NCBI GenBank assembly: GCA_038203955.1
Contig: JBBRDK010000007.1
Location: 299 to 64,298, forward strand
Reading direction: 5' to 3'
DNA: 64,000 bases
DNA from: Thermoanaerobaculia bacterium
GTDB taxonomy: Bacteria > Acidobacteriota > Thermoanaerobaculia > UBA5066 > Gp7-AA6
The notes beneath the pieces were generated by a model. That model saw only the letters and a program-made list of their open reading frames with translations. It ran no database searches and was not told where the DNA came from. The position numbers were made by a program, and so were the translations under genes. This document shows, one piece after another, positions 1,817 through 63,819 of the stretch (the first letter of the stretch is position 1; every line of letters begins with the position of its first letter).

Positions 1817-3205
1817 TCAGGCCGGCCGCGCGGCGCCCGTCCGGCGCCACCAGAGGTACGCCGGAAGGCCGGCGACGAGGATGCCGAGTCCGATGACGGA
1901 CTCAACGGGCTTCTCGAGCAGCGTGTTTCCGACGAAGACGAGACAGACGGCCACGAACACCAGCGGGATCCAGGGGTATCCGGGAACGCGGAAGGGCCGC
2001 GGCTCGTCCGGCCGGCTGCGGCGCAGCACGATGACCGCGACGCCCGTCACGGCGTGGAAGAGGAAGATCGCGAAGATCACGTAGGTATACAGCTGCTCGT
2101 ACGTCCCCGAAAACGTCAACGCAATGCCCCACGCGCCCTGAGCGATCAGGCTCGCGCCCGGGGTGTGATGCTTCGGATGGACGCGCCCGAGTGCTTCGAA
2201 AAACAGGCCGTCGCGCGACATCGGCAGGTAGATCCGGGCGCAGTAGAGGACCGTCGTCGCCAGGCACCCGAAGATCGAGATGAGCACGAGGGCCGTCATG
2301 AGCCGACCGCCTCCGGGGCCGAAAAGCGCGAGCGCGCTCGCTTCGGCGACCCGCGGCGTCTTTGCCAGTACCGCGACGGGGAGGGCCCGGAGGTAGACGA
2401 CGTTGACGAGCAGGTAGATGCCCGTGACGGCCGCGGTCCCGACAATCAATCCGATCGGAAGCGACTTTTCCGGCTTTCTCATCTCACCGGCGAGAAACGT
2501 GGCGCCGTACCAGCCGTCGTACGTCCACAGCACGGCGATCATGCCGACGCCGGCCGCGGCGAAGCCGGTTGGAAAGAGGGAGCCGGTGTGCGCGAACGCT
2601 CCCGGCCGGGCCGGAAGGAAGAGACCCACGACGCCGAGGAGGACGAGCGACAGGATCTTCGCGGCGGTGATCGCGTTCTGGAAGCGCGTGCCGGCGCGAA
2701 CGCCCGCGTAGTTGATCGCGGTCAGTCCGGCGATCGCGATGGCCCCTGCGAGCTGCGCGCCGGTCGCCGTCCAGACGAAGGATCCGATCGGTACGCTCCA
2801 GAGCCGGTGCGCGCTCGAGAAAAACGGGAGGAACGCGCCGAGATACTCACCGAACCCGACGGCCAGCACGGCGATCCCGCCCGTCATCATCACGAAGAAG
2901 GCGCCCCAGCCGTACAGGAACCCGGAGAGGGGGCCATACGCTTCCTTCAGGTAATGGTACTGGCCACCGGCGCGCGGAAACATCGCCCCGAGCTCCGCAT
3001 AGGTCAACGCCCCCGCCAGCGCGAGGATGCCGCCCCCCACCCACAGGAGGAGAATCCCGCGCGGGTCCGGAACGGCCTTCGCGATTTCCGAGGTCGTCAG
3101 GAAGATGCCGGTCCCGAGGGTCGCGCCGACCGTGACGAGAATGGCGTCCGTCGTCGAAAGCGCCCGTTCGAGGCGGGGCTCCTCTCCCGGCGACGGCGTG
3201 GTCAT
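1817..3205 (-). CDS. APC-superfamily amino acid permease
   Basis: 462-aa ORF that is hydrophobic throughout. N-terminal LSTTDAILVTVGATLGTGIF region typical of amino-acid/polyamine/organocation transporters. Its stop abuts the DUF1611 start. Confidence 0.85.
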   Translation of the reverse strand: MTTPSPGEEPRLERALSTTDAILVTVGATLGTGIFLTTSEIAKAVPDPRGILLLWVGGGILALAGALTYAELGAMFPRAGGQYHYLKEAYGPLSGFLYGWGAFFVMMTGGIAVLAVGFGEYLGAFLPFFSSAHRLWSVPIGSFVWTATGAQLAGAIAIAGLTAINYAGVRAGTRFQNAITAAKILSLVLLGVVGLFLPARPGAFAHTGSLFPTGFAAAGVGMIAVLWTYDGWYGATFLAGEMRKPEKSLPIGLIVGTAAVTGIYLLVNVVYLRALPVAVLAKTPRVAEASALALFGPGGGRLMTALVLISIFGCLATTVLYCARIYLPMSRDGLFFEALGRVHPKHHTPGASLIAQGAWGIALTFSGTYEQLYTYVIFAIFLFHAVTGVAVIVLRRSRPDEPRPFRVPGYPWIPLVFVAVCLVFVGNTLLEKPVESVIGLGILVAGLPAYLWWRRTGAARPA

Positions 3206-3213
3206 GACGAAGA

Positions 3214-3280
3214 GTTCTCAGTAATCAGTTTTCAGTTTTCAGTGGAATCGACTGACGACTGAGAACTGACAACTGAGAAC
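3214..3280. repeat. Inverted pair of heptamer arrays (TCAGTNN x4 / NNACTGA x4) giving a hairpin with 30-nt arms and a 7-nt loop
   Basis: Left arm 3214-3243 gttctcagtaatcagttttcagttttcagt, loop ggaatcg, right arm 3251-3280 actgacgactgagaactgacaactgagaac. Hand pairing gives 25 Watson-Crick pairs, 2 G:U pairs and 3 mismatches, and every non-Watson-Crick position falls at the variable positions of the units. The right arm touches the SBP stop codon (3280-3282). Confidence 0.85.
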
Positions 3281-4386
3281 TACTCGGCCTTCCCGCTGCC
3301 GGGCTCGTACTTCCACGCCTTCTGGCGCTCCGCCGCGTCGGCGAAACGGGTATCGACGTACTCCGAGAACGGGATCTTGCGGTCGAGGACGCGGGTCTCG
3401 ATCATCAGGTCCCGGACCATGTCGAAGTCCGGCTTGCGCGGCGAGAGGCTCGTGTACGTGACGCGGTCGAGCGGCATCGTGAGCGCGTGGCGCAGGAGCG
3501 CGGGGGGCTGACGGTAGTAATAGCGGCCGACGAAATCCGCGGCGTGCTCCCGGTGGGGCTTGCCTTCGTCCAGCCAGAGGCCCGAGCGCGCGATCCCGTC
3601 GACGAGCACCTGGACGGCGTCCGGGCGCGTGTCGATGACGTCCTGCCTCACGACGACGACGCAGGACATGTAATCGGGCCAGTACTCGCGCGCCGGAAAG
3701 AGAATACGGCCGAAGCCGCCGATCTCCGCCTGGGCGGGATACGGCTCGCCCATGGAGAAGGCGTCGATCGCCTTCGCCGCGAGCGCCCCCGGGACGTCGG
3801 GCGGCGCCATCTCGATCATGCGCACGTTCTCGGGCGGGATGCCGTTGGCCTTCAGGGCCTTGAAGACGATGAGGCGTTCGTCGGAGAACCGGCTGGGAAT
3901 CGCGATGATGCGTCCCCGCAGGTCCTTTACGGAGTGGATCGGGCCATTCTTCTGGACGACGACGGCGCTTCCGTACCGATGCCCGAGATAGACGATTTTG
4001 ATCGGCACGCCCTGGGCGCGCAGCGCGATCGCCATCGGAGCCACCATGAATCCCACCTGCATGCGGTTGGAGATCAGCGCCTCCTTGATCTCCGGAAACC
4101 CCTGGAACATGCGGGGAATGAAGAGATTTCCCGCGAGCGAATACCTCGAGATGAAATCCGTCACAGGGCACGCGAGGTGGCAGGTCACCGGGATGTACGC
4201 CACGTTCAGCTTCCGCCGGGAAGGCGGCAGGCGCTGATTCACGATTGAGGACCAGTCGACGTTCAGCGCCATGTGCGCCCCGGTCAACGCGGCGGTCCAG
4301 AGGAGCGCGCCGGCGGCCAGCCGCCGGCCGATGCGGACCGGCCGGCGATCGCGGGTCACCTCAGGAGGCGGCGATGCCGCCGTCAT
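3280..4386 (-). CDS. ABC transporter substrate-binding protein, NMT1/THI5-like (NitT/TauT family)
   Basis: ORF track gives 3280..4404. I prefer ATG 4386 because it makes an ATGA overlap with the permease stop at 4383-4385. Signal/anchor-like AAGALLWTAALTGA followed by an SsuA/TauA-like body. Confidence 0.75.
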   Translation of the reverse strand: MTAASPPPEVTRDRRPVRIGRRLAAGALLWTAALTGAHMALNVDWSSIVNQRLPPSRRKLNVAYIPVTCHLACPVTDFISRYSLAGNLFIPRMFQGFPEIKEALISNRMQVGFMVAPMAIALRAQGVPIKIVYLGHRYGSAVVVQKNGPIHSVKDLRGRIIAIPSRFSDERLIVFKALKANGIPPENVRMIEMAPPDVPGALAAKAIDAFSMGEPYPAQAEIGGFGRILFPAREYWPDYMSCVVVVRQDVIDTRPDAVQVLVDGIARSGLWLDEGKPHREHAADFVGRYYYRQPPALLRHALTMPLDRVTYTSLSPRKPDFDMVRDLMIETRVLDRKIPFSEYVDTRFADAAERQKAWKYEPGSGKAE

Positions 4387-14252: not shown

Positions 14253-14879
14253 GTGCGGAGCCGTACAAGCGTATTCTGGCGGGACCGAGTGAAGCCGCAC
14301 TTCGCGCGCGCGTTGAGAGGTTCGGACCGCCCCTCCCGGCGGGATGGGAGCGGAAACGCGCTCTGCCGGGAATGCGGCAGTTCCGTGCGCCGGCCCCGGC
14401 GCACTTTCTGCTCGAAGGCCTGCGTCGACGCCCTGCTCGTCCGCACGTCGCCGTCCGCCGCACGGGACCGCGTGTTCGAGCGCGACCGCGGCCGCTGCGC
14501 GCGATGCGGACTCGATACCGAGGCCCTCAAGAGGAAGCTCGCTGCGATGCGTCGCAGGAATCCGGTTCCCGAAGCCCTCGAGGAGGCCCGCCGCCTTTCG
14601 ACGGGGTTCGAGCGCGCGGTCTTTCTTCGCGCGCGCCGTCCCTGGATCGCCATCCGCCGCGCTCTCTGGGAGGCGGATCACGTCGTGCCGGTCGTCGAGG
14701 GCGGCGGCGGATGCGGCCTGGATAACCTGCGCACGCTGTGCATTCCCTGTCACCACGCGGAGACGCGCGATCTCGCGCGCCGCCGCGCGGCCGCGAGGCG
14801 GGAGGCGGGAAGGACCGAGGGGCCGGGAGCCGAGCGACCAACGGGAGCGAGACGGCCGCGGTACTCCGCGGTCAACTAG
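14253..14879 (+). CDS. HNH endonuclease with an N-terminal CxxC...FCSxxC zinc ribbon
   Basis: RDRGRCARCG...WEADHVVPVVEGGGG...LDNLRTLCIPCHHAET. The last ~30 codons and the stop are encoded by the GAGGCGG units plus the 56-nt element. The exact start is uncertain. Confidence 0.75.
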   Translation: MRSRTSVFWRDRVKPHFARALRGSDRPSRRDGSGNALCRECGSSVRRPRRTFCSKACVDALLVRTSPSAARDRVFERDRGRCARCGLDTEALKRKLAAMRRRNPVPEALEEARRLSTGFERAVFLRARRPWIAIRRALWEADHVVPVVEGGGGCGLDNLRTLCIPCHHAETRDLARRRAAARREAGRTEGPGAERPTGARRPRYSAVN

Positions 14880-25876: not shown

Positions 25877-28800
25877 TCAGTCCTCGCTGAACCTCTCCGG
25901 CTCCGGCAGGATCCGCAGCGTCGTCTTCTGCGAGGCGTTTCCCGAGCGGATCTGGACGGAGTAAGTCCCCGGCGGGAGATACCGCTTGCGGGTCGCCCGC
26001 AGAGGATCCTCCAGCAGCCGGAAGAGGTCCGGATCGAGGGGCCTCTTCGGGCCCGCGGCGGGCTTCTCCTCGTCGGGTTTCGGAGGCTCCGCGTCGTCAT
26101 CCGCGTCGGTGGCCGCCGCAGGGGGCGCGGGAACGGGCGGGGGCGCGGCGTCCCCGGGCTTGACGGCCGCCAGCGCTTTTTCGCGGGCCTTCGCTTCCGC
26201 GGCGTCCGCGAGCTTCGGGTCCGCGGAGAGGTCGTACTCGATCACGTTGAATCCGGACGCGGGCGGACCGGCGAGCTCCTTCCAGGGACTCCCGTTCTCG
26301 TCCTGGATCGAGAGGGAAACGGGCTGGCCGGTCTTCGACCACCACGCGATGCGGACCGCCGGGTCGTCCCGGCCCCACGTGAAATACGGGTGGTCGCCGT
26401 AGCCTTTTCGCGCGGAGAGCTTGAGCGACTTGATCGGAAAGGCGACGAGCGGATCGGCCGGCGGGCCGTCTTTCATGCGGCGCAGAGGCGCGGCCTCGGC
26501 GACGTAGACGCTGCGTCCGTGGGTCGCGACCACGAGATCGCCCTCCCGCGGCTGCACCGCCACGTCGTGCACGCCCACCCTCGGCAGGCCTCCCGAAAGG
26601 GCCGTCCACGTCGCGCCGCGGTTGAGGGACGCGAAGACCCCGCCGTCGGTCCCGACGTAGAGAAGGTGCCTCGCTTTCGGATCTTCCCGGACCGTATTGA
26701 TCGGCTCGGCGGGAAGCCCGCCCGCCAGCGACTGCCAGGTCTTTCCGAAATCGGTCGAGCGGAAAAGGTACGCGCCGAAGTCGTCATCGCGGTAGCCGTT
26801 CTGCGCCACGTAAACGGTGCCCTCGTCGAAGGCGGACGCGACGACGCGGGTCACCCACTTGTCGCGCGCCATCCCTCTGGAGAGATCCGCCCAGGTGTTG
26901 CCGCCGTCCCGCGACCCCCACACGCGTCCCTCGTCCGTCCCCACGAAAAGGACGCCGAACCTCTTGGGCGATTCCGCGATGGAGGTAATGGTCCCGAAGG
27001 GAACGTCTCCCTGCCCGCGGTTCGAGGTCAGGTCCTCGGAGATCGCCGTCCACGTGTCGCCGCGGTCGAACGACCGGTACAGGCGGTTCGTTCCGTAATA
27101 CAGGATCTCGCGCGAATGGGGGGAAAGCAGAAACGGCGTGACCCAGTTGTAGCGGAGCGGCTTTTCCTTTTTCGCCGCCGAGAGCTCCGGCCGGGGCCGA
27201 AGCCGCTGCCTCTCGCCCGTCTTCAAGTTGATCCGGCCGGACGATCCGAACTGCCCCGCGGCGTAGATGATGTTGCCGTCCTTCGGGTCGATGACGACGC
27301 AGCTGCCGTCGCCCCCCCAGATCGACTTCCAGGCCTGGGGATCGGTCTTGCCGGGGCGGTACGTCGACGGCCCCCGCATCACGCCGTTGTCCTGCAGTCC
27401 GCCCACGATGTTGTACGGCTCGGCGTCGTCCACCGCGAGCGTCGTGAACTGTCCGACCGGGATGTTGTTCAGCTTCGTCCAGGTCTCGCCACCGTCGGCG
27501 GACATGTTGATCCCGCCGTCGTTGCCGATGACGACGCGCGACGGAGTCTTCGGGTCGATGAAGATCGCGTGATGGTCGCCGTGAACGCCGCGCTGGTCGA
27601 TGCCCTTGAAAGTCTTTCCCCCGTCGGTCGAAGCGACCATCGGGACCCCGCCGATGTAGATGTGATCGGGGTTGGAGGGGTCCGCGGCGATGCGCGCGAA
27701 GTAGTACCCGTAGGAGTAGAAGACCTTCTCGATCCGGCCGGCGTGCGTCTTCTTCCAGCTCGTCCCGCCGTCGTCGGTGCGATAGACCTCGAGCCCGACG
27801 ACCTCGTTCTCGAAGAGGTCCCGGTTGCTGTCCTTGAGGTACGCCAGCAGGTCGGCGACCGTGACCTTGCCGGCGGCCACGTCCTTCTTGAGCCTCGCGG
27901 CCTTCAGCGTCTTCGGAAAATCGTTGCGCTGGAGAAACCGCGAGACCGTGGCGTCGTCCAGCCGCGAGAAGGTCTCCGGGGTGAGCACCTTCAGCCGGCG
28001 CGGCGTCAGGTCGCCGGGGGGCGCCTCCTCGTCCAACGGCTCCGCGTCGGGCCGGAACGCCTGATTGTCGAGCACGGCGTAGAGGGTGTCGGGGCGCGAC
28101 GCCGCGATCGCGAGGCCGATGCGCCCGAGGGTCGCGCCGGAGGGCAGGGATCCCGTAAGGCGCTTCCACGTCCCGCCGCCGTCGGCCGATTTCCAGACGC
28201 CGCTCCCCGGCCCGCTTTCGAGAAAGTTCGCCGCCGTTCGCGCGCGCTCCCACGTCGCCGCGTAGACGACGTCCGGGTTGCGGGGGTCGGCCACGAGGTC
28301 GATGGCGCCCGTCCGATCGTCGACGAAGAGAGTCCGCGACCAGGTGCGTCCGCCGTCGGTCGTACGATAGACGCCGCGCTCCGAATTCTCCGTGTAGAGG
28401 TGGCCCATCGCGGCGACGAGCACGGTCTCCGGGCTTCGCGGATCGACCACGATGCGCGCGATGTGGTGCGTGTCCGTAAGGCCCAGGCTCTGCCACGACC
28501 GGCCGGCGTCCGTCGTCTTGTACATGCCGGTGCCCGCGTACGACGTGCGGCTCGAGTTTGCCTCGCCCGTGCCCACGTAGATCGTCCGGGCGTCTCCATC
28601 CGCCAGGGCGAACGCGCCGATCGTCAGCGTAGGCTGCGAGTCGAAGAGAGCGGTCCAGGTTCCCCCGCGGTTGTCCGTTCGCCACAGCCCTCCCGACGCA
28701 AACGCGACGACGAGCGAGTCGGGGTAATTCGAGGGCGCGGCGAGTTCCACCACCCGTCCTCCCTGGATCTCGGGTCCGACGTTTCGGAACTTGAGCGCGT

Positions 28801-29128
28801 TGAAAATCGACGCCTTCTCCATTGCGTCGCGCTGCGAGGCGGCCCGGGCGCGGGCGGCGGCATCCGTCCCCGTGCGGCGGGGGTGGAAGCGGCGCCGCTC
28901 CTCTTCCTTCGATAGCGGCTTGGCCTCTTCCCGGGGCAGTGGCTTCGCCGCTTCCCGGGGAAGTCGCTTGACCTCTTCCCGGGGCAGTGGCTTCGCCGCT
29001 TCCTCGGGCAGTCGCTGGGCCGCCTCTCCGGTTTTCGCGGGCGGCTTGTCCTGCGCCCTTACCGCGAGCGGCGACGCCAGAGCGGCCCAGAGCAACAGCC
29101 GCACCGAAGCCCTCAGGGTCTTGCGCAC
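25877..29128 (-). CDS. Sortilin/VPS10-like BNR (Asp-box) repeat protein, secreted
   Basis: 1083 aa with a signal peptide. Many SxDxGxTW Asp-boxes (TDNRGGTWT, TTDAGRSWQ, TTDGGRTWS, SADGGGTWK, STDGGKTFK, SADGGETWT, SRDGGNTWA, STDFGKTWQ). Confidence 0.85.
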   Translation of the reverse strand: MRKTLRASVRLLLWAALASPLAVRAQDKPPAKTGEAAQRLPEEAAKPLPREEVKRLPREAAKPLPREEAKPLSKEEERRRFHPRRTGTDAAARARAASQRDAMEKASIFNALKFRNVGPEIQGGRVVELAAPSNYPDSLVVAFASGGLWRTDNRGGTWTALFDSQPTLTIGAFALADGDARTIYVGTGEANSSRTSYAGTGMYKTTDAGRSWQSLGLTDTHHIARIVVDPRSPETVLVAAMGHLYTENSERGVYRTTDGGRTWSRTLFVDDRTGAIDLVADPRNPDVVYAATWERARTAANFLESGPGSGVWKSADGGGTWKRLTGSLPSGATLGRIGLAIAASRPDTLYAVLDNQAFRPDAEPLDEEAPPGDLTPRRLKVLTPETFSRLDDATVSRFLQRNDFPKTLKAARLKKDVAAGKVTVADLLAYLKDSNRDLFENEVVGLEVYRTDDGGTSWKKTHAGRIEKVFYSYGYYFARIAADPSNPDHIYIGGVPMVASTDGGKTFKGIDQRGVHGDHHAIFIDPKTPSRVVIGNDGGINMSADGGETWTKLNNIPVGQFTTLAVDDAEPYNIVGGLQDNGVMRGPSTYRPGKTDPQAWKSIWGGDGSCVVIDPKDGNIIYAAGQFGSSGRINLKTGERQRLRPRPELSAAKKEKPLRYNWVTPFLLSPHSREILYYGTNRLYRSFDRGDTWTAISEDLTSNRGQGDVPFGTITSIAESPKRFGVLFVGTDEGRVWGSRDGGNTWADLSRGMARDKWVTRVVASAFDEGTVYVAQNGYRDDDFGAYLFRSTDFGKTWQSLAGGLPAEPINTVREDPKARHLLYVGTDGGVFASLNRGATWTALSGGLPRVGVHDVAVQPREGDLVVATHGRSVYVAEAAPLRRMKDGPPADPLVAFPIKSLKLSARKGYGDHPYFTWGRDDPAVRIAWWSKTGQPVSLSIQDENGSPWKELAGPPASGFNVIEYDLSADPKLADAAEAKAREKALAAVKPGDAAPPPVPAPPAAATDADDDAEPPKPDEEKPAAGPKRPLDPDLFRLLEDPLRATRKRYLPPGTYSVQIRSGNASQKTTLRILPEPERFSED
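28919..29014. repeat. In-CDS tandem repeat, 2 x 48 nt (4 x 24 nt), encoding (K/R)xLPRE(E/A)xK octapeptides
   Basis: cttggcctcttcccggggcagtggcttcgccgcttcccggggaagtcg / cttgacctcttcccggggcagtggcttcgccgcttcctcgggcagtcg. Lies in the linker after the signal peptide. Confidence 0.8.
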
Positions 29129-34158: not shown

Positions 34159-34274
34159 CCGTTACCTCCCGGAGCCGGCAGGCGGCCCCGATGAAGGCTT
34201 ACGGAAAAGCCGGGAGGAAAGTCCCGAGGTTTAGCCGAGGGTTTGGTGAGGAAGGGGGGTTGGGCGCTGGGCGC

Positions 34275-34307
34275 GGCCGTCTCGCTCCCGTCTGTCGCTC
34301 GGCTCCC
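34275..34307 (-). repeat. Partial, inverted copy of the 56-nt element
   Basis: ggccgtctcgctcccgtctgtcgctcggctccc matches the reverse complement of the first 33 nt of the element at 31/33 positions. The hairpin half is absent. Followed by CCGCCTC-type units at 34329-34348. Confidence 0.75.
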
Positions 34308-34362
34308 GTTTCCCGGCCCCGGCTCTGTCCGCCTCCCGCCTGCCGCCTAACCCCCTTCCGTC

Positions 34363-38830: not shown

Positions 38831-38865
38831 TTTTCAGTCATCAGTTCTCAGTTTTCAGTTCTCCG
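38831..38865. repeat. Heptamer array TTTTCAG TCATCAG TTCTCAG TTTTCAG TTCTCCG
   Basis: Starts at the nt after the CPBP stop. Contains the stop codon (38848-38850) of the convergent metalloprotease gene. Confidence 0.9.
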
Positions 38866-40092
38866 TTTGGCTCCGTTGACGCTGATGGCCTTCGTTTCCC
38901 GTTTCCCGTTTCCCGTTTCCCGGCTCCGGCCCCCCGTCTTCACGATCGTCAGATCCGGCCCCCGCCGGGTGACCGAACCCCCGAGCTTCGCCGCGGCGGT
39001 CCAGGCGTTGGCGAATCGCTCCGCGGAGCCGGGGGATTCGAATCGCAGCTTCCACACGTAGGCGATGTCCCGGCCGGCCGCGTAGAAAGCGATCCGATCC
39101 CCCCTCCATCCGGCGGCGAGAGGATCCGCCTGGGCTGCCGCGAGTCCCCGCCGGAGGAGAAAGCGGACGCCCCACTCGCCGATGGTGTCCGTGTACAGCG
39201 TCCGGAATCCGGCCGGCGCCAGGCGGTCGGCCGCGGGTGCGGTCATGAGGTCTTCGGCGGGGGCGAACGCCGGCCCCTCGTGGAGGATCTCGGAGGTCGT
39301 GGCGGGCGGGTTCTTCCACATGCGGTCGATCCCCGCCCAGCCGCCGGCCTTCACGACGCGGCGCACGTAGGCGGTTCCTTCGACGTAGGGGAAGAAGAGC
39401 TGCTGCGAGAAGTAGTCGGGAAGGTCCTTCGGCATTTTCGCGCTCTCGAGCGCTCCGGCGGAGAGGAGAGGCGCGAGGCTTTCTTCGACCTCGGAGCTCT
39501 GTCCTCCCGGCAGCGATGACAGGGCGACGCGGACCATGACCAGAGTCGCCTCGCCCTCGAGCAGGCTCTCGAGAGCGAGAGCCCGGTCCCCGTTGTCCTT
39601 CAACTGCTTCACACGGCGGTCGAGCTTCATGGATTCGTCCTGCAGCGCGTGCGTCAGCTCGTGAGCGAAGATCATGCGCTCCCCGGCGTCGGAGGAGAGC
39701 TCCTCGGGGGCCGGTATGGCCGGCGACCCGCCTTTCACGAGGAAGAATTTCCGCGGTTCCGGGTCGTAAAACGCGATCACCTGGCTTGCGTAGAAGTCGA
39801 GGAGCCGATCGACCAGGTTCGGTGTCTCCTCGAAGAACCCGATCGCCACCATCGTACGCATCGTGTCTTCCGGCGACGCGGGAAAGCCTTCGAGAAGCTT
39901 GGCCCGAAGCACCTTCTTGAGCTCGACGGGATCGATCTCGCTGGCGGGGATCTGCCGCTCGAACCGGCGCCCCCGGACGCTTTCCACCTGGCGCGCGACC
40001 TCCTCGACCCGGGCCGGGAGGAGAGCGGTCGCGCCCGCGGTCGCGAGCGCCAGGCACGCCAGCAGGGCCGCGGGCAGCCGTCCAAAGTTCAT
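38848..40092 (-). CDS. Secreted HExxH zinc-metalloprotease-like protein
   Basis: 414 aa with a signal peptide and FAHELTHALQDE. The C-terminal ~25 residues are encoded by repeat arrays. Confidence 0.7.
   Translation of the reverse strand: MNFGRLPAALLACLALATAGATALLPARVEEVARQVESVRGRRFERQIPASEIDPVELKKVLRAKLLEGFPASPEDTMRTMVAIGFFEETPNLVDRLLDFYASQVIAFYDPEPRKFFLVKGGSPAIPAPEELSSDAGERMIFAHELTHALQDESMKLDRRVKQLKDNGDRALALESLLEGEATLVMVRVALSSLPGGQSSEVEESLAPLLSAGALESAKMPKDLPDYFSQQLFFPYVEGTAYVRRVVKAGGWAGIDRMWKNPPATTSEILHEGPAFAPAEDLMTAPAADRLAPAGFRTLYTDTIGEWGVRFLLRRGLAAAQADPLAAGWRGDRIAFYAAGRDIAYVWKLRFESPGSAERFANAWTAAAKLGGSVTRRGPDLTIVKTGGRSRETGNGKRETKAISVNGAKRRTEN
38894..38921. repeat. (GTTTCCC)x4 perfect array inside the 3' end of a CDS
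   Basis: 28 nt, translated on the minus strand as ...RETGNGKRETK... Confidence 0.9.
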
Positions 40093-54789: not shown

Positions 54790-54793
54790 TGGG

Positions 54794-54842
54794 AAATCAG
54801 TTGTCAGTTATCAGTCGTCAGTTATCAGTCATCAGTTCGGAG
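54794..54842. repeat. Seven-unit heptamer array AAATCAG TTGTCAG TTATCAG TCGTCAG TTATCAG TCATCAG TTCGGAG
   Basis: In register. Inverted relative to 54912-54943. Confidence 0.9.
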
Positions 54843-54874
54843 TCCTCGCAGGCGCATTCTCCCTGTTGGGCGAG

Positions 54875-54903
54875 AAAAAACAAAAGGGGCGCCGAAGCGC
54901 CCC
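54875..54903 (-). terminator. Rho-independent terminator of the lipoprotein gene
   Basis: The minus strand reads GGGGCGC-TTCG-GCGCCCC followed by TTTTGTTTTTT. Confidence 0.75.
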
Positions 54904-54911
54904 TGTCCGAA

Positions 54912-54943
54912 GACTGAAAACTGAGAACTGAGAACTGACGACT
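54912..54943. repeat. Heptamer array (ga)CTGAAAA CTGAGAA CTGAGAA CTGACGA CT
   Basis: Ends 4 nt from the stop codon at 54948-54950. Confidence 0.9.
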
Positions 54944-54947
54944 CCCT

Positions 54948-55980: not shown

Positions 55981-58209
<2,229 letters not shown>

Positions 58210-58280
58210 GATTTCCTTTCGAGGCCGGCGAGGGGAAAAGGACTGCGGCCGCGGGGCGGAATGCCCCGACGCTCCGGCAG

Positions 58281-58305
58281 AGAAAATGTCCCGGCCCTCG
58301 GGCCG
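58281..58305 (-). terminator. Weak hairpin plus U-run between rpsO and pnp (attenuator or pnp leader)
   Basis: The minus strand reads CGGCCCGAGGGCCG followed by GGACATTTTCTCT. Confidence 0.3.
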
Positions 58306-58316
58306 ATGGATGTTTT

Positions 58317-58595
58317 TTACTTACGGAGGCCGAGCCGCTCGATCAGCCGGTGGTAACGATCGGCATCCTCGCTCTTCAGGTAGTCGAGCAGGCGCCGGCG
58401 CCGGGAGACGAGCTTCAAGAGCCCGCGGCGGGAGTGGTGGTCCTTCGCGTTCGTCTTGAAGTGCTCGGTCAGGTAGGTGATCCGGTTCGTCAGGAGGGCG
58501 ACCTGGACCTCGGGGGAGCCGGTGTCGGTGTCATGGGTGCGGTAATCCCGCACGATGTTTGGCTTTTCCGTCGTCTGGTAGGTGGTAGCGTTCAA
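58317..58595 (-). CDS. rpsO: 30S ribosomal protein S15
   Basis: [53 protein letters not shown] start with GGAGGA upstream. Confidence 0.95.
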
Positions 58596-58693
58596 GAATC
58601 CTCCAATAGCCTCTATAACACCCTACTTTTTTAATAAACGGCAAGCCTAGCACGGGCCGGAGCAGGCGCAAAGGGGCTTGAGTCCGGGTCGAC

Positions 58694-58864
58694 AGGCGGC
58701 AGGCGGACCGAAGCCGGGAATCGGGAGCCGAGCGACCAATGGGAGCGAGACGGCCGCGGTACTCCGCGGTCAACTAGATCGGGAATCGGGAATCGGGAAT
58801 CGAGGACGGGAAACGGGAAACGAAAAAGGCGGGTTTCTGGCTGATAGCTGATAGCCGATAGCTA
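58694..58864. repeat. Composite repeat locus: AGGCGGN x2, GGGAATC, the 56-nt element, GGGAATC x3, GGGAAAC x2, GCTGATA x3
   Basis: Read directly. Unit positions: 58694-58707, 58716-58722, 58723-58778, 58781-58801, 58808-58821, 58840-58864. Confidence 0.9.
58723..58778 (+). repeat. Conserved 56-nt element, copy 3
   Basis: gggagccgagcgaccaatgggagcgagacggccgcggtactccgcggtcaactaga. Confidence 0.9.
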
Positions 58865-58865
58865 C

Positions 58866-59816
58866 TCACCGCCTCCCGCCTCCCGTCTCTTCGGCCAGCA
58901 CGATCCTCGGCTTCAGGATCGACACGCCGCCCTGGCCGATCGGGGAGACCTGCGCGAGGGCGACCATTTCGTCCCCGGGTCCGATAAGAGTCACCCAGGC
59001 CCCGTCTGCCGAGGCCAGGCCGCGCGCCGGGATCGACTGTCCCTTGCGGACCTTCCACGCCTCGAGGGAGGCGAGCCGAAGCCGCTCGAAAGGAAACGGG
59101 ACGCGCGAGAGGGGAAGGGCGTGCGGCCGCGAGAGTCTCTCCGCGGCGGGCAGCGATTCGAAGAGCTCGAGCGCGACCGCCTCTTCCACGCGGAAGTCGC
59201 CGATCCGCGTTCGCCGCAGGCTCTCGAGGTGCGCGCCGCAGCCGAGCGATTCGCCGATCGCGTGCGCGATCGACCGGATGTAGGTGCCGGAAGAGCAGGA
59301 GATCGAGAACTGGATGCGTCCGCCGGCCGGCGGCGAGAGGACGAGCTCCGACACGCGCACCTTCTTGGGGAGCACCGGGACTTCTTCGCCCCGCCGGGCC
59401 ATCTCGTAGAACTTGCGGCCCTTGATCTTCTTCGCCGAGTAAGGAGGCGGAGACTGCAGAAACTCCCCCCGAAACGGTGAGGCGGACGCCTCGATCTCCT
59501 CCGCGCCGATGCCGGCCGCGTCTTTCTCCGCGCCGAGGGGCTCGCCCTCCCGGTCGTACGTCGCCGTCGCGAGGCCGAGCCGGATGGTGCCCTCGTAGGA
59601 CTTGTCGAGCAGGGTGAAAAATCCCTGGAGCCGGGCGGCGCCCCCGGCGCACAGGAGGAGCAATCCCGTCGCCATGGGATCGAGCGTCCCGCTGTGGCCG
59701 ATGCGGGGGACCCCCGTCGCGCGGCGCGCGCGCTCGACGACGTCGTGGGAGGTCAGGCCGCCGGGCTTGTCGATCAGGATGAGGAAGCCGCGCGCGAGAG
59801 AATCGGGCCGCGTCAC
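58866..59816 (-). CDS. truB: tRNA pseudouridine(55) synthase
   Basis: GTG 59816 overlaps the rbfA stop (GTGA). KPGGLTSHDVV...GHSGTLDPMATGLL. The last codons (ETGGGRR) are CCGCCTC-type units. Confidence 0.9.
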   Translation of the reverse strand: MTRPDSLARGFLILIDKPGGLTSHDVVERARRATGVPRIGHSGTLDPMATGLLLLCAGGAARLQGFFTLLDKSYEGTIRLGLATATYDREGEPLGAEKDAAGIGAEEIEASASPFRGEFLQSPPPYSAKKIKGRKFYEMARRGEEVPVLPKKVRVSELVLSPPAGGRIQFSISCSSGTYIRSIAHAIGESLGCGAHLESLRRTRIGDFRVEEAVALELFESLPAAERLSRPHALPLSRVPFPFERLRLASLEAWKVRKGQSIPARGLASADGAWVTLIGPGDEMVALAQVSPIGQGGVSILKPRIVLAEETGGGRR

Positions 59817-60366: not shown

Positions 60367-60394
60367 CCGCCTCCCGCCTCCCGCCTCCCGCCTC
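60367..60394. repeat. (CCGCCTC)x3 + CCGCCCC array
   Basis: 28 nt. Ends 9 nt from the stop of the DUF503 gene. Confidence 0.9.
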
Positions 60395-60403
60395 CCGCCC
60401 CGT

Positions 60404-60691
60404 TCACACATGAATGAACTCATTGCGATAGTCCAGAATCTCGCCGTCGAGGTTCGATTGGACGAACCCGAGCACGTTCTGCAGCAGGGCGTCCAGCGGC
60501 GGCTGGTCCGGCCCGACCACAGCGACGCCCAGCTCGCACCGCTGGAGAAGATCCTGACCTCCGACCTCGGCCGCGGAGATCTCGAATTCGTGTCGAATGC
60601 GACTCTTCAGGCTCTTGACGATCATGCGTTTTTCTTTGAGACCGCGGCATCCCGGAAGGTAGAGATCGAAGACCGCGTAGGCGAGGACCAT
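60404..60691 (-). CDS. DUF503 (YlxP-like) protein
   Basis: 95 aa, MVLAYAVFDLYLPGCRGLKEKRMIVKSLKSRIRHEF. Canonical position between infB and rbfA. Confidence 0.8.
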   Translation of the reverse strand: MVLAYAVFDLYLPGCRGLKEKRMIVKSLKSRIRHEFEISAAEVGGQDLLQRCELGVAVVGPDQPPLDALLQNVLGFVQSNLDGEILDYRNEFIHV

Positions 60692-60714
60692 GGGCTGTCA
60701 GCCTGCGGCTGCCA

Positions 60715-60819
60715 GGTTCTCAGTCGTCAGTTTTCAGTCTTCAGTCTCGGGCCGGGAGAAGACGTCGAAACGCAGCCTCGCGGTCGAACTGAGAACTGAG
60801 GACTGACAACTGAAAACTC
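60715..60819. repeat. Inverted heptamer-array pair (TCAG-type 60717-60746 and CTGA-type 60787-60819) with a ~40-nt loop
   Basis: TTCTCAG TCGTCAG TTTTCAG TCTTCAG ... CTGAGAA CTGAGGA CTGACAA CTGAAAA. The right array ends at the nt before the infB stop codon. Confidence 0.9.
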
Positions 60820-63819
60820 TCACCCATTCATCACGCCGGCGACCTTTTCGACCTGGTACGCCTCGATGATGTCGCCCACCTTCACGTCCTGGTACTTCTC
60901 GAGGCCGATGCCGCACTCGAACCCCTGTTTGACCTCCGAGATGTCGTCCTTGAACCGCCGCAGGGATCCGATCTTGCCTTCGTAGATCACCCGGTTGTCG
61001 CGGAGGAGGCGCACCTTGGAGGTTCGGCTGATGGAGCCTTCGGTCACGTAGCAGCCCGCGACGATCCCGAACTTCGGCACCTTGAAGGTGTTGCGGACCT
61101 CGGCCCGGCCCTGCGCGACTTCTTTCAGGGTCGGATCGAGCAGGCCCTCCATGGCCAGCTTGATCTCGTCGGTGACGTTGTAGATGACGGTGTGCAGACG
61201 GATGTCCACCCCGGCCTTCTCGGCCTCGGTTTCCGCCTTCTTTTCCGGGCGGACGTTGAAGCCGACGATGATGGCCTTGGACGCCGAGGCGAGCAGCACG
61301 TCGTTGATGTTGATCGCGCCGACGCCGGCGTGGATGACGGACACCTTGACCTTCTCGTTGGAGAGGTTCGAGAGCGACTGGTTCAACACCTCGACCGACC
61401 CGGCGACGTCCGCCTTCAGCACGATCGAGAGGTCCTTGACGCGGCCTTCCTGGATCTTGCTGAAGAGCTGGTCGAGCGAGAACTTCGACGAGGCCGCCAT
61501 CACCTTCTCGCGATCCTTGGCTTGGCGGAACGCCACGACGGACCGCGCCTTCGCCTCGTCCTCGACTCCCTGGAAGGTGTCGCCCGCCTGAGGGAGGTCC
61601 TCGAAACCGGTGACCTCCACCGGCGTCGCGGGTCCGGCGATCTCGATCTTGACGCCGCGGTCGTCCTGCATCGAGCGAACGCGCCCGAACACGGATCCGG
61701 CGAAGAAGACGTCGCCCACCTTCAGGTTGCCGGCCTGCACGAGGACGGTCGCGAGGTTCCCGCGGCCGATCTCGCGGCGGGCCTCGAGCACCACGCCCCG
61801 GGCCTCGTCCACGACGGGCGCCTTCAGCTCCTGAAGCTCCGCGACGAGAAGGATGAGCTCGAGCAGGTGATCGATACCCTCCTTCTTCAGGGCGGAGATC
61901 TCCGCCGAGGGAACGTCCCCGCCCCAGGATTCCAGCAGCACGCCGCGGTCGGCGAGCTCTTTCTTCACGCGATCGGGGTTCGCGTTGTTCTTGTCGATTT
62001 TGTTGATGGCGACGACGATCGGGACCTTGGCCGCGCGGGCGTGGTCGATGGCCTCGATGGTCTGCGGCATGACGCCGTCGTCCGCCGCGACGACGAGCAC
62101 GACGATGTCGGTCGCCTTCGCGCCGCGCGCGCGCATCGAGGTGAACGCCTCGTGGCCGGGCGTGTCGAGGAAAACGATCGGCTTGCCGTTGGTCTCGACG
62201 CGATACGCGCCGATGTGCTGCGTGATTCCGCCCGCCTCGCCCGCGGCCACGTTGGCCTGGCGGATGGCGTCCAAGAGCGAGGTCTTCCCGTGGTCGACGT
62301 GCCCCATGACGGTGACGACCGGCGCACGAGTGACCCTCGCCGCTTCCGCGGCCTCCGCCTCGCCCGGACGCGACTGCGAGTCCGCGGCGCGAGAGAGCTC
62401 CAGCTCTTCCTCGAACGAGACGACCGCCGCCTCGGCCCCGACCTCCTTGGCGATCTGGATCGCGGTCTGCGCGTCGAGAGGCTGATTGACGGTCGCCATG
62501 ATCCCGCGCTGCATGAGCAGGCGGAGGATGTCCTTCGCGAGAACGCCGAGCTTCTCGGAGAGCTCCTTGACCGTGACGCCTTCCGACAGAAAGACGGGGC
62601 CGGTGGGCAGGGGCTTCTTGAACTCGAGCAGTTTGCCGGAATCGTGCGTGCGCGTTTCCTTCGCCGCCCGCCGCAGGGCGGACTTCGAGATCGGCCTCGC
62701 CGTCGGGACCTCTTCGCCGTCGGTCTTTTCGATCAGCGGCAGGGAGATGTCCGAGTACGTGTCTTCCTGGTAGGTGCCCACGAACTCGCGAAGATCGACT
62801 TCGTCGGCAACGGTGATCTTCGGCTTGGCTCCGCCTTTCTTGGCGTTCTTCTTCGCGTCTTCCTTGTCATCCTTCTTGCGCTTCGGCGCGGCTCGCTCCG
62901 CCGTGGCCGGCGGCGCGGTTCCGCGTCCGGCCGCGGGACCGGTCGGCCGCCCGAGCGCGGGCGCTCCCGGCCTGCCCATCGGCGCGCCGACGCGCCCGGG
63001 TCCTCCGAGCGGACGCGCGCCCGGCCCGCCCGGAGTGGGCCGGTACACGGACGGCCCTGCGGGACCCGACGGACCCATCGGCCGGCCCGGAGTCCCCGAG
63101 GCCGGACCCATCGGCCGGCTGATGGGACCTCCGGAGGGTCCCATCGGGCGGCTCGGCGCCCCCGCCGCCGGGCCCATCGGACGGCCGGCCGCGCCCGGCG
63201 GCGCCAGCGAGGGTCCTGAAGGACGCCCGGGGGCGACGGGACGCGCAGGCACGACGGGACGAGGAGGCAGGATGATCTTGCGGGGGATAGCCCTGGCCGC
63301 CGGGGCTCCCGCGGCCGAGACGGGGGCGACGCCCGGCGCCGGCGGAGCGACCGCCGCCGTGCCCGGGGCGGGCGCGGCGGGAGGGGGAGCGGCGGGAGCG
63401 GCTGCCGGCGGTGCGGCGGCGGGCGGCGAGGTCGCGGAAACGGCTTCCGGCTCCGGCTCGGCGTCGATGACGGCGGTGCGGGCCGGCTCCGCCGGCACGG
63501 CCGCCCGCGCGGCGCGCGGCTCCGGCTTCGGGCGGGGAGCGTCGACCGCCGGCTCCTCGGCGGCCCCGGGGGGCTTCTCGATGATCTTGATGCGGGAGAG
63601 CGCGCTCTTCTGCGGCCGCGGCGCGCGCGACTCGGTGTCGCGCACGATCAGCTGCTTGGGCGCGTGGGTCTTTCCCTGGAGGATCGCCAGCACGGTCGAT
63701 TCATCGAGCGCCGCCTGCGGAGACTTCACGTCGACGCCGATCGACTGCAGGAGGAAGAGAACCTCCTTGCTGCCGATCCCCATCTGCGCGGCGAGCTCCT
63801 CGACTCGGATCTTTCCCAT
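60820..63819 (-). CDS. infB: Translation initiation factor IF-2
   Basis: 999 aa. G-domain [26 protein letters not shown]. Pro/Gly-rich N-terminal region with repeated RPMGP motifs. Confidence 0.95.

Follow-up and report, generated by a model that had tools for sequence, protein, structure and literature searches.

The window analysed here is a 64,000-nt stretch of contig JBBRDK010000007.1 (GenBank assembly GCA_038203955.1), with 68% G+C, from a Thermoanaerobaculia (Acidobacteriota) metagenome-assembled genome (MAG); the best matches to its TruB protein that have a named source are Acidobacteria/Acidobacteriota or Thermoanaerobaculia MAGs. Within it, the genes truB and rpsO are separated by a spacer of 270 nt (58596–58865), and the variable, truB-proximal part of this spacer is a 171-nt locus in which arrays of heptamer repeats surround one copy of a dispersed element of ~57 nt. 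An earlier note on this DNA had placed the locus inside a compact, conserved operon, and the nusA-infB-DUF503-rbfA-truB-rpsO-pnp cluster is indeed otherwise compact, and syntenic in relatives.

All the repeat units listed in that note are present, at the coordinates it gave, when the sequence is read directly (Table 1), as are the 1-nt gap that it described next to the truB stop and the CCGCCTC units serving as the last truB codons. Its count of at least four repeat families is here reduced to three heptamer families and the element, because GGGAATC and GGGAAAC form a single family (GGGAAWC), and AGGCGGN is the inverted form of the CCGCCTC units of truB. Tandem Repeats Finder (TRF) reports the arrays of the locus, with GGGAATC/GGGAAAC as a period-7 repeat of 6.1 copies, and the self-identity of 58694–58889 is 0.55 at a lag of 7 nt, against ~0.27 at other lags.

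The truB–rpsO region was recovered from nine relatives (genomes or contigs), whose TruB identities range from 96% down to 79%. Gene order is the same in these relatives, truB and rpsO are adjacent in all, and their spacers measure 150, 144, 173, 118, 78, 94, 194 and 158 nt (L001 and L002 being the same). In this comparison of the spacer, which the earlier note had called for, the rpsO-proximal ~75 nt is the sole part that aligns in all nine; the truB-side part differs from genome to genome. The 56-nt element is absent from the spacers of all nine relatives. A GCTNTCA-type array, of ~3–6 units with drifting unit sequence, follows the truB stop in L004, L084, L088, L089 and the window, and is missing there in L001 and L003; its presence in five genomes indicates that it is ancestral to the clade, and not part of one composite insertion. 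GWTTCCC units (GGGAAWC on the other strand) occur in the spacer only in the window and in its closest relative, L001. At the position where the window reads (GATTCCC)3-GA-core-GATTCCC-GGC, L001 has a single GATTCCC-GGC. This pair of filled and empty sites could have arisen if the element inserted into a GGGAATC unit, or if it was deleted between the direct repeats on either side of it; since the outgroups possess neither GATTCCC nor the core, both histories fit.

The non-repeat spacer CAGAAACCCGCCTTTTTC of the window is homologous to CGGAAGCCGGGACTCTTC in L001, and at the position of 58694–58715 L001 carries a longer CCGCCTC-type tract, which pairs with its own truB tail (z = −3.5). The C-terminal extension of TruB ends in ETGGGRR, EAGGGTR, ETIGRR, ETVGRR or EALPGRR, and is lacking in more distant relatives; the tail colonised by the array is thus a dispensable one. 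The earlier note had proposed testing whether unit number varies among reads or strains, which would indicate slippage. Between related genomes such variation is found (GCTNTCA at ~3–6 units after the truB stop; GGGAATC at ~4 versus ~9 units beside an orthologous element copy, in L013 and L029), but within the strain it is not, the copy numbers being identical in three assemblies.

The element itself is a repeat family of the lineage. The window contains three near-identical copies, at 14825, 50537 and 58723, all on the + strand and with 0–2 mismatches where none is expected by chance, and a fourth, inverted copy at 34272–34322 whose 3′ half is decayed. A scan of one genome per species, with a pattern laid over two conserved blocks (27 exact bases), returned at least 76 stretches, and those listed all come from eight Thermoanaerobaculia/Acidobacteriota MAGs; in total, 80 copies or more of the element are known from at least eight related MAGs. 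It is present in the genomes of L003 and L004, though absent from their truB–rpsO spacer. Stacking 78 copies from eight species-level genomes gives the core CGGGAGCCGAGCGACC-ann-GGGAGCGAGACGGCCGCGG-TACT-CCGCGGTCAAC-TnGATC, in which ~49 of the 57 positions are near-invariant; identity is 90–100% at each position, apart from some four central ones and the final few bases. A hairpin with an 8-bp stem and a 4-nt loop (GGCCGCGG TACT CCGCGGTC) accounts for 20 of the 57 nt, the remainder not being palindromic, and conservation extends beyond the stem to the TACT of the loop.

In most copies the core is preceded by CGGGAAT or CGGGAAA, and followed by 1–9 GGGAATC units and then GAA. Within 30 nt of the core (79 copies) GGGAAWC reaches 22.5 per kb, compared to 0.74 per kb in the fetched loci as a whole (543 kb), a roughly 30-fold enrichment, and 114 of these units have the same orientation as the core while two have the opposite one. 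With GGGA at its start and ATC at its end, the core reads like a heptamer unit into which ~51 nt have been inserted. The linkage among unit families that the earlier note saw at this locus thus stands for the element and GGGAAWC, whereas GCTGATA and AGGCGGN have no specific association with it. Other arrays lie near element copies at variable distance (AACGCTC, GCTGACA, CCGCCTT and CGTTTCC downstream, GAGGCGG upstream), and for roughly half of the copies a strong period-7 array is found no more than 150 nt away. A mechanism common to all the repeat families, which that note thought probable, is a plausible conjecture. Direct tandem multimers of the core, with a period of 57–72 nt, are found in L015, L038, L063, L076 and L079; they comprise 2–3 copies (L079 1827–1990, L063 ~3100–3312, L015 5235–5337), sometimes with GGGAGCC or GGGAATC in between.

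With respect to neighbouring genes, as called by a crude picker based on third-position G+C content, 16 copies are sense and 20 antisense, while 15 lie between convergent and eight between divergent genes. This lack of strand bias argues against a strand-specific RNA function as a general property of the element, and favours a DNA-level element or a symmetric signal. A known structured RNA was also rejected: at the gathering threshold, Rfam finds only a tRNA in the whole window; a search of 58560–58920 at E up to 10, S15 leaders included, gives only chance-level matches far below gathering scores; and single-copy elements, folded on both strands, are, apart from the 8-bp hairpin, no more stable than shuffled sequences (z between −1.4 and +0.6). 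Blastn of the 80-nt composite against PLSDB and INPHARED gave no match, on which evidence a plasmid or phage origin was set aside. The element is not a miniature inverted-repeat transposable element either, as it has no terminal inverted repeats (TIRs): its two ends are complementary at 8 of 16 positions at best, no more than chance would give. Most copies are flanked by one and the same direct repeat, the (ATC)GGGA(AWC) unit, and not by a variable target-site duplication (TSD); this unit must be a specific target, or else belong to the element. The further idea that the element sits at the apex of a hairpin formed by its own flanks was discarded, duplex energies of matched flanks being equal to those of mismatched pairs (p = 0.75).

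Ten pairs of orthologous core copies from different species, in each of which both members match the search pattern, are 96% identical, or 92% at the positions not fixed by that pattern; for the same pairs, the adjacent 100 nt of spacer is 60–71% identical, and the mostly coding flanks ~85%. Orthologues vary at the same few positions as paralogues do, which points to site-specific constraint rather than to wholesale gene conversion. From these alignments the core looks constrained in sequence across species, and this suggests recognition by a protein, or by a mobilisation machinery of its own, rather than a strand-specific RNA role.

Two individual copies have unusual surroundings. An open reading frame (ORF) at 14253–14879 (+), residues 138–172 of which match the HNH endonuclease domain (Pfam PF01844, E = 3.6e-6), continues through a GAGGCGG array into a copy of the 57-nt element, and its stop codon is the TAG of the element (CTAGAAC). 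In L053 (JBDTRB010000119.1, 1000–1360, − strand), each of two element copies leads into CCACCAACCTTGCGGGCCC… and then a duplicated 5′ half of tRNA-Arg(TCT), GCCCGTAGCTCAGNTGGATAGAGC, upstream of the intact tRNA-Arg gene (1009–1085); this single case may be the scar left by a recombination or integration event at a tRNA gene.

Heptamer arrays are by no means confined to the truB–rpsO spacer. The window contains 21 arrays with a period of 7 nt, where dinucleotide shuffles have 0.3 (at most 2), and the other periods between 4 and 12 give 0–4 arrays, none of them comparably enriched; together with the lag-7 signal, this shows that the periodicity is not an effect of composition. According to gene contexts called with a crude ORF picker based on third-position G+C content (GC3), 31 of 35 arrays lie within, or edge, spacers whose neighbouring genes are co-directional or convergent, and divergent spacers have none, although the sample is small. 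At orthologous sites, unit number or unit sequence differs among relatives. Inverted array pairs are common in the spacers of the window, for example at 3206–3279, 54790–54947 and 60692–60819. In the last of these, between infB and the DUF503 gene, the inverted arrays form a long hairpin (z = −6.0). The same spacer in six relatives uses four different units, AGTTNTC, AGCTCTC, GTSAGGG and GGGAGAC, and the downstream arm complements the upstream arm in every case (Table 1). Since the unit changes while the arms stay complementary, both arms must have been replaced together. This turnover fits a selected hairpin; it would also fit copying from arm to arm, by template switching at quasi-palindromes.

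On the transcript strand of the truB–rpsO spacer, the truB tail GACGGGAGGCGGGAGGCGG is predicted to pair with CGUUUCCCGUUUCCCGUC across the stop codon, the tail units GAGACGG GAGGCGG GAGGCGG being the 5′ arm. This 96-nt fold has an energy of −43.9 kcal/mol, compared to −30.4 ± 3.4 for shuffled sequences (z = −3.99), and none of 200 shuffles is as good; the analogous hairpin at the truB tail of L001 employs a different C-rich arm. The only terminator called in 58200–59000 lies downstream of rpsO (58306–58291), and the CCCGCC-UUUUU at 58824–58834 has its nearest complement 40 nt upstream. The transcript of the variable part is rich in C and poor in G (0.41 and 0.23, respectively), with a similar skew in L001 and L004; C exceeds G in only three of the nine relatives, which makes Rho loading by a conserved composition a weak proposition. 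The + (template) strand has five G3 tracts, but no motif of four such tracts with loops of 1–7 nt, the canonical form of a G-quadruplex; allowing a 10-nt loop yields one motif, at 58781–58810.

Could the locus be mis-assembled? Two short contigs, from independent assemblies of other sequencing runs, carry a gene for the same 316-aa TruB as the window. These match the window base for base at the end of truB, the stop, the TATCAGC array, the 18-nt spacer, GTTTCCC ×2, GATTCCC ×3 and the first 18–28 nt of the element, and then end inside the element, as is the behaviour of a short-read assembler at a dispersed repeat. The truB-side 128–138 nt, including all array copy numbers, is therefore identical in three assemblies, and mis-assembly there is unlikely. 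The earlier note had named a mis-assembled or collapsed junction as what would overturn its account; that concern is answered on the truB side, while the rpsO-side junction was not found elsewhere, a locus-spanning pattern and a unique 21-mer from the rpsO side having zero matches in the metagenomes of the Joint Genome Institute (JGI).

Several known repeat systems resemble the one described here. G-rich heptamers of the form GGGAATC/GGGNATC have been reported in Xanthomonas and Nostoc (Rehm et al., 2015; PMC4692102); in Xanthomonas these arrays are intergenic, lie near ORF ends, often as convergent pairs, vary between Xcc and Xac, and are of unknown function (PMC4692102). Heptamers are in excess among long simple-sequence repeats (LSSRs), and 7 nt has been proposed to be the contact length of the polymerase, which would favour slippage (Mrázek et al., 2007, cited in PMC4692102 and PMC4679880). 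Under a definition of LSSRs after Rehm et al. (at least two tandem heptamers, that is at least 14 bp, with at least one GGGAATC, GGGANTN units being allowed), GGGAATC ×3 at 58781–58801 and GGGAAAC ×2 at 58808–58821 qualify. The locus shares with Xanthomonas the identical GGGAATC unit, GGGAAAC-type variants, and a dispersed, mostly intergenic distribution. In both lineages the arrays lie near ORF ends, sometimes over stop codons, and are rare between divergent genes; convergent inverted pairs are frequent, and length and sequence vary among close relatives at the same site. In contrast to Xanthomonas, the host is an acidobacterium, the arrays are short (3+2+1 units, versus a preferred four) and contain no canonical G-quadruplex motif unless a 10-nt loop is admitted, and GGGAAWC is tightly and directionally coupled to the 57-nt core, which has not been reported for Xanthomonas.

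In Beggiatoaceae, cyanobacteria and Bacteroidetes, start codons have been found preceded by direct repeats of TAACTGA (MacGregor, 2015; PMC4679880). The window likewise has NAACTGA arrays a few nt 5′ of start codons, for example at 54797–54836 and 3218–3243 (read on the − strand), and their complementary AGTTNTC arrays directly past stop codons; abundance in intergenic regions and a sporadic phylogenetic distribution are further shared features. A direct reading of 58596–58865 contains no NAACTGA unit, whereas other spacers of the window do. The systems differ in that several unit families coexist here, while in BOGUAY related heptamers are rarely repeated, and in that inverted pairs are the rule in the present genome and the exception in the TAACTGA system.

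Bacterial interspersed mosaic elements (BIMEs) have been proposed to stabilise upstream mRNA or to terminate transcription weakly. The element resembles BIMEs (of which E. coli has examples), repetitive extragenic palindromes (REPs) and REPINs (PMC3116915) in being short, non-coding, extragenic, of high copy number, endowed with a hairpin and found in either orientation, and in forming mosaics with other short motifs, inside operons or at 3′ ends. It differs from them in that only 20 of its 57 nt are palindromic, that the accessory motifs are heptamer arrays, and that its multimers are direct tandems, not inverted doublets like those of REPINs. No RAYT-type transposase was seen beside clustered copies in a superficial check, no systematic search having been made. 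A further parallel may be the small dispersed repeats (SDRs), which are said to be tiny non-coding elements dispersed inside heptamer arrays of heterocystous cyanobacteria. Their presence reportedly differs between close relatives, and they are said to lack transposase genes and classical TIRs. The present element is longer than most SDRs are said to be, and differs from them in phylum and sequence.

I consider it probable that the locus is a fast-evolving, non-essential mosaic of heptamer arrays and one copy of a dispersed element, akin to BIME/REP elements or SDRs and shaped by slippage and by insertion or excision. Heptamer arrays would be a lineage-wide feature of gene ends, in co-directional and convergent spacers, which gain and lose units and drift in sequence; slipped-strand mispairing would be the simplest process. 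The core, embedded between GGGAAWC heptamers in fixed polarity, would belong to a composite gained or kept only in the lineage of the window, having arrived by insertion into a GGGAATC unit, or having been lost from L001 through recombination between direct repeats. Because it lies upstream of the conserved promoter and leader block of rpsO, the mosaic should be present only in the 3′ untranslated or read-through RNA of truB. The sole plausible local function would reside in the stop-spanning hairpin, which could form only once the terminating ribosome has gone, and which probably acts, if at all, as a 3′-end structure of the upstream operon, stabilising it or terminating weakly.

A number of observations weigh against this account. 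The identical copy numbers in three assemblies of the strain give no sign of ongoing slippage at the locus, and the placement of arrays at gene ends depends on the crude GC3-based calls. Without a transposase, TIRs or variable TSDs, mobility is deduced from presence/absence and copy number only; around eight clustered loci, where ORF starts only were inspected by eye, no transposase was seen and the neighbours are housekeeping-like. The conservation of the core across species would be unusual for selfish junk and could mean a host function, although it is conditional on both copies matching the 27-base pattern, so that decayed copies such as that at 34272 are under-sampled. On the RNA side, the whole 305-nt spacer folds no better than shuffled sequences (z = +0.34) and no intrinsic terminator was called in 58596–58900, hence any RNA role comes down to one sub-hairpin.

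It is possible, though unlikely, that the locus serves specifically to insulate or terminate transcription between the nusA-infB-rbfA-truB operon and rpsO. It would do so by way of the stop-spanning hairpin, by loading Rho onto the C-rich and G-poor transcript, or by a G-quadruplex of GGGAAWC units on the template strand that blocks RNA polymerase. The stability of the hairpin (z = −3.99) and its counterpart at the truB tail of L001, the base composition of the transcript in the window, L001 and L004, the five G3 tracts, the formation of G-quadruplexes by (GGGAATC)n in vitro (PMC4692102), and the avoidance of divergent, promoter-only spacers, as in Xanthomonas (PMC4692102), would all agree with such a role. 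Yet the locus has no hairpin followed by a U-tract, the skew is present in only three of nine relatives, a four-tract G-quadruplex needs the 10-nt loop, the element with its GGGAAWC flanks is unbiased in orientation relative to transcription, and relatives get by with spacers down to 78 nt that lack all such features. I give somewhat less credence still to the ~57-nt core being a host cis-element, whether bound sequence-specifically by a protein of the nucleoid, of repair or of recombination, or transcribed independently as a small RNA, with heptamers as accessory spacers and the present copy as one site among hundreds. Its near-invariance at ~49 of 57 positions over 78 copies in eight species-level genomes, the 92–96% identity of orthologous copies next to spacer at 60–71%, the shared variable positions of orthologues and paralogues, which imply site-specific constraint over blanket gene conversion, and the conserved TACT loop speak for this; but nine relatives lack this copy in the orthologous spacer, so that the site is dispensable, there is no Rfam match, the fold is no better than shuffles, neither strand bias nor promoter or terminator signals are seen, and the estimate of conservation suffers from the ascertainment bias described above.

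It seems improbable that arrays and core are substrates or products of a dedicated machinery that recognises their sequence and would generate, bind or mobilise repeats, shared horizontally among very distant phyla. This idea arises because GGGAATC (of Xanthomonas) and NAACTGA (of Beggiatoaceae and cyanobacteria) both recur in Acidobacteriota, and because the arms of inverted arrays change together and the core is apparently constrained; were it true, the arrays would be maintained punctuation of gene boundaries (stop and start hairpins), not slippage debris. Very improbable, finally, is an assembly artefact, that is a chimeric join or collapsed repeat at the dispersed element. Both independent short-read contigs do end within the element, where assemblers evidently break, and the rpsO-side junction occurs in no other collection searched, but the truB-side 128–138 nt and its array copy numbers agree in three assemblies, the adjacency of truB and rpsO in every relative makes the join syntenic, and the sequence on the rpsO side of the element aligns to relatives.

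As a mosaic of heptamer simple-sequence repeats and a small dispersed element, the locus adds to a known class of extragenic sequence and is not a new system; on its own it reveals no new biological mechanism. It does bring a class of uncultured, high-GC acidobacteria into the heptamer-repeat phenomenon, earlier reports of which concern Xanthomonas, cyanobacteria, Beggiatoaceae and a few Bacteroidetes. In a full-text literature search, no paper linked Thermoanaerobaculia to intergenic repeats, and this would be the first description of this repeat class, heptamers with a dispersed element, in Acidobacteriota, and of a new family of small dispersed repeats with a strict, polar association with GGGAAWC. 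The filled and empty sites, in genomes whose TruB proteins are 96% identical, offer a handle on how arrays are seeded and spread. The points of moderate interest are this first description, the apparent constraint on the core and the compensatory turnover of inverted arrays, and they lie mostly outside the locus. For annotation, the repeats account for contigs of this lineage that break in spacers and for ORFs artificially extended through arrays, and only the rpsO-proximal ~75 nt of the spacer should be counted as regulatory.

Table 1. Genes and repeat features of the truB–rpsO region, and homologues of the infB–DUF503 spacer. Positions are those of the window unless a relative is named.
Feature	Position	Strand	Remark
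infB	60820–63819	−	ORF; domain label from relatives' annotation
DUF503 gene	60404–60691	−	ORF; domain label from relatives' annotation
rbfA	between DUF503 gene and truB	−	domain label from relatives' annotation
CCGCCTC CCGCCTC CCGTCTC	58869–58889	+	on −, GAGACGG GAGGCGG GAGGCGG, the last 7 truB codons (…ETGGGRR)
truB	stop 58866–58868 (TCA on +, TGA on −)	−	product is the 316-aa TruB
single base C	58865	+	between GCTGATA array and truB stop
GCTGATA GCTGATA GCCGATA GCTA	58840–58864	+	on −, TAGC TATCGGC TATCAGC TATCAGC, right after truB stop
18-nt non-repeat spacer CAGAAACCCGCCTTTTTC	58822–58839	−	CCCGCC and T-run; interior (multiloop) region enclosed by the stop-spanning helix
GTTTCCC GTTTCCC GTCCTC	58802–58821	−	3′ hairpin arm; pairs, G·U included, with the G-rich truB tail
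GGGAAAC ×2	58808–58821	+	sequence read directly
GAGGAC	58802–58807	+	sequence read directly
GGGAATC ×3	58781–58801	+	usual right-hand flank of the element
element GGGAGCCGAGCGACCAATGGGAGCGAGACGGCCGCGGTACTCCGCGGTCAACTAGA(TC)	58723–58778(80)	+	one copy of the dispersed core, GGGAGCCGAGCGACCAAnGGGAGCGAGACGGCCGCGG TACT CCGCGGTCAACTnGATC; antisense to truB/rpsO
GGGAATC ×1	58716–58722	+	usual left-hand flank of the element
CCGAAGCC	58708–58715	+	adjoins AGGCGGN units
AGGCGGC AGGCGGA	58694–58707	+	transcript reads TCCGCCT GCCGCCT, inverse complement of the truB-tail units
conserved rpsO-proximal block CGTGCTAGGCT…GTTTATTAAAAAAGTAG…GGCTATTGGAGGATTC, then TTG	58596–58672	−	outside the repeat mosaic
rpsO	58317–58595	−	TTG start preceded by an ordinary GGAGG Shine-Dalgarno
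pnp	55981–58209	−	domain label from relatives' annotation
infB–DUF503 spacer homologues	L001 3114–3212; L004 3169–3287; L084 608–712; L085 750–847; L086 673–798		

The conserved block next to rpsO is presumed to be the promoter and leader of this gene. The earlier note had seen an AT-rich promoter region here: the AT-rich block is kept in the nine relatives, but a search for the sigma-70 consensus in 58596–58672 gave no match. The Rfam scan of 58560–58920 (E up to 10) has no match inside the block either. The block and the TTG start are retained down to the relatives with 79% TruB identity, and it could hold a lineage-specific autoregulatory structure for S15.

Some other arrays and repeats of the window merit brief description. 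At 54790–54947 and 3206–3279, AGTTNTC units begin at or just past the upstream stop codon, and NAACTGA units (×4–6) end 4–7 nt 5′ of the next start codon, with no Shine-Dalgarno sequence visible, a layout like that described for TAACTGA in Beggiatoaceae. The two arrays of 54790–54947 are separated by a textbook intrinsic terminator, GGGGCGCTTCGGCGCCCC and a T-run (~54868–54905, − strand), and should therefore be on different transcripts. In the DUF503–rbfA spacer, a perfect array of CCGCCTC ×4.7 (60367–60399; GAGGCGG in the transcript) starts ~5 nt past the DUF503 stop; it has the same number of units in L001, the 96% relative, and is absent from L003 and L004. A perfect CGTTTCC ×4.3 array of the GGGAAAC family, at 38893–38922, has no 57-nt core nearby and sits in the 3′ end of the longest ORF, 38848–40092 (−), which is probably over-extended through the repeat. 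Tandem repeats of 24/48 nt (4.8 copies) at 28917–29031, in the 5′ end of the large ORF 25877–29128 (−), are unrelated to the heptamers. Lastly, the low-complexity C-terminal tail of PNPase (…GPDDHGDDRGPRDERGPRDDRGPRGDQRGPRGPRR; window 55981–56090) is encoded by an 18-nt tandem repeat at the 3′ end of pnp, which TRF places at 56018–56079 with 3.4 copies.

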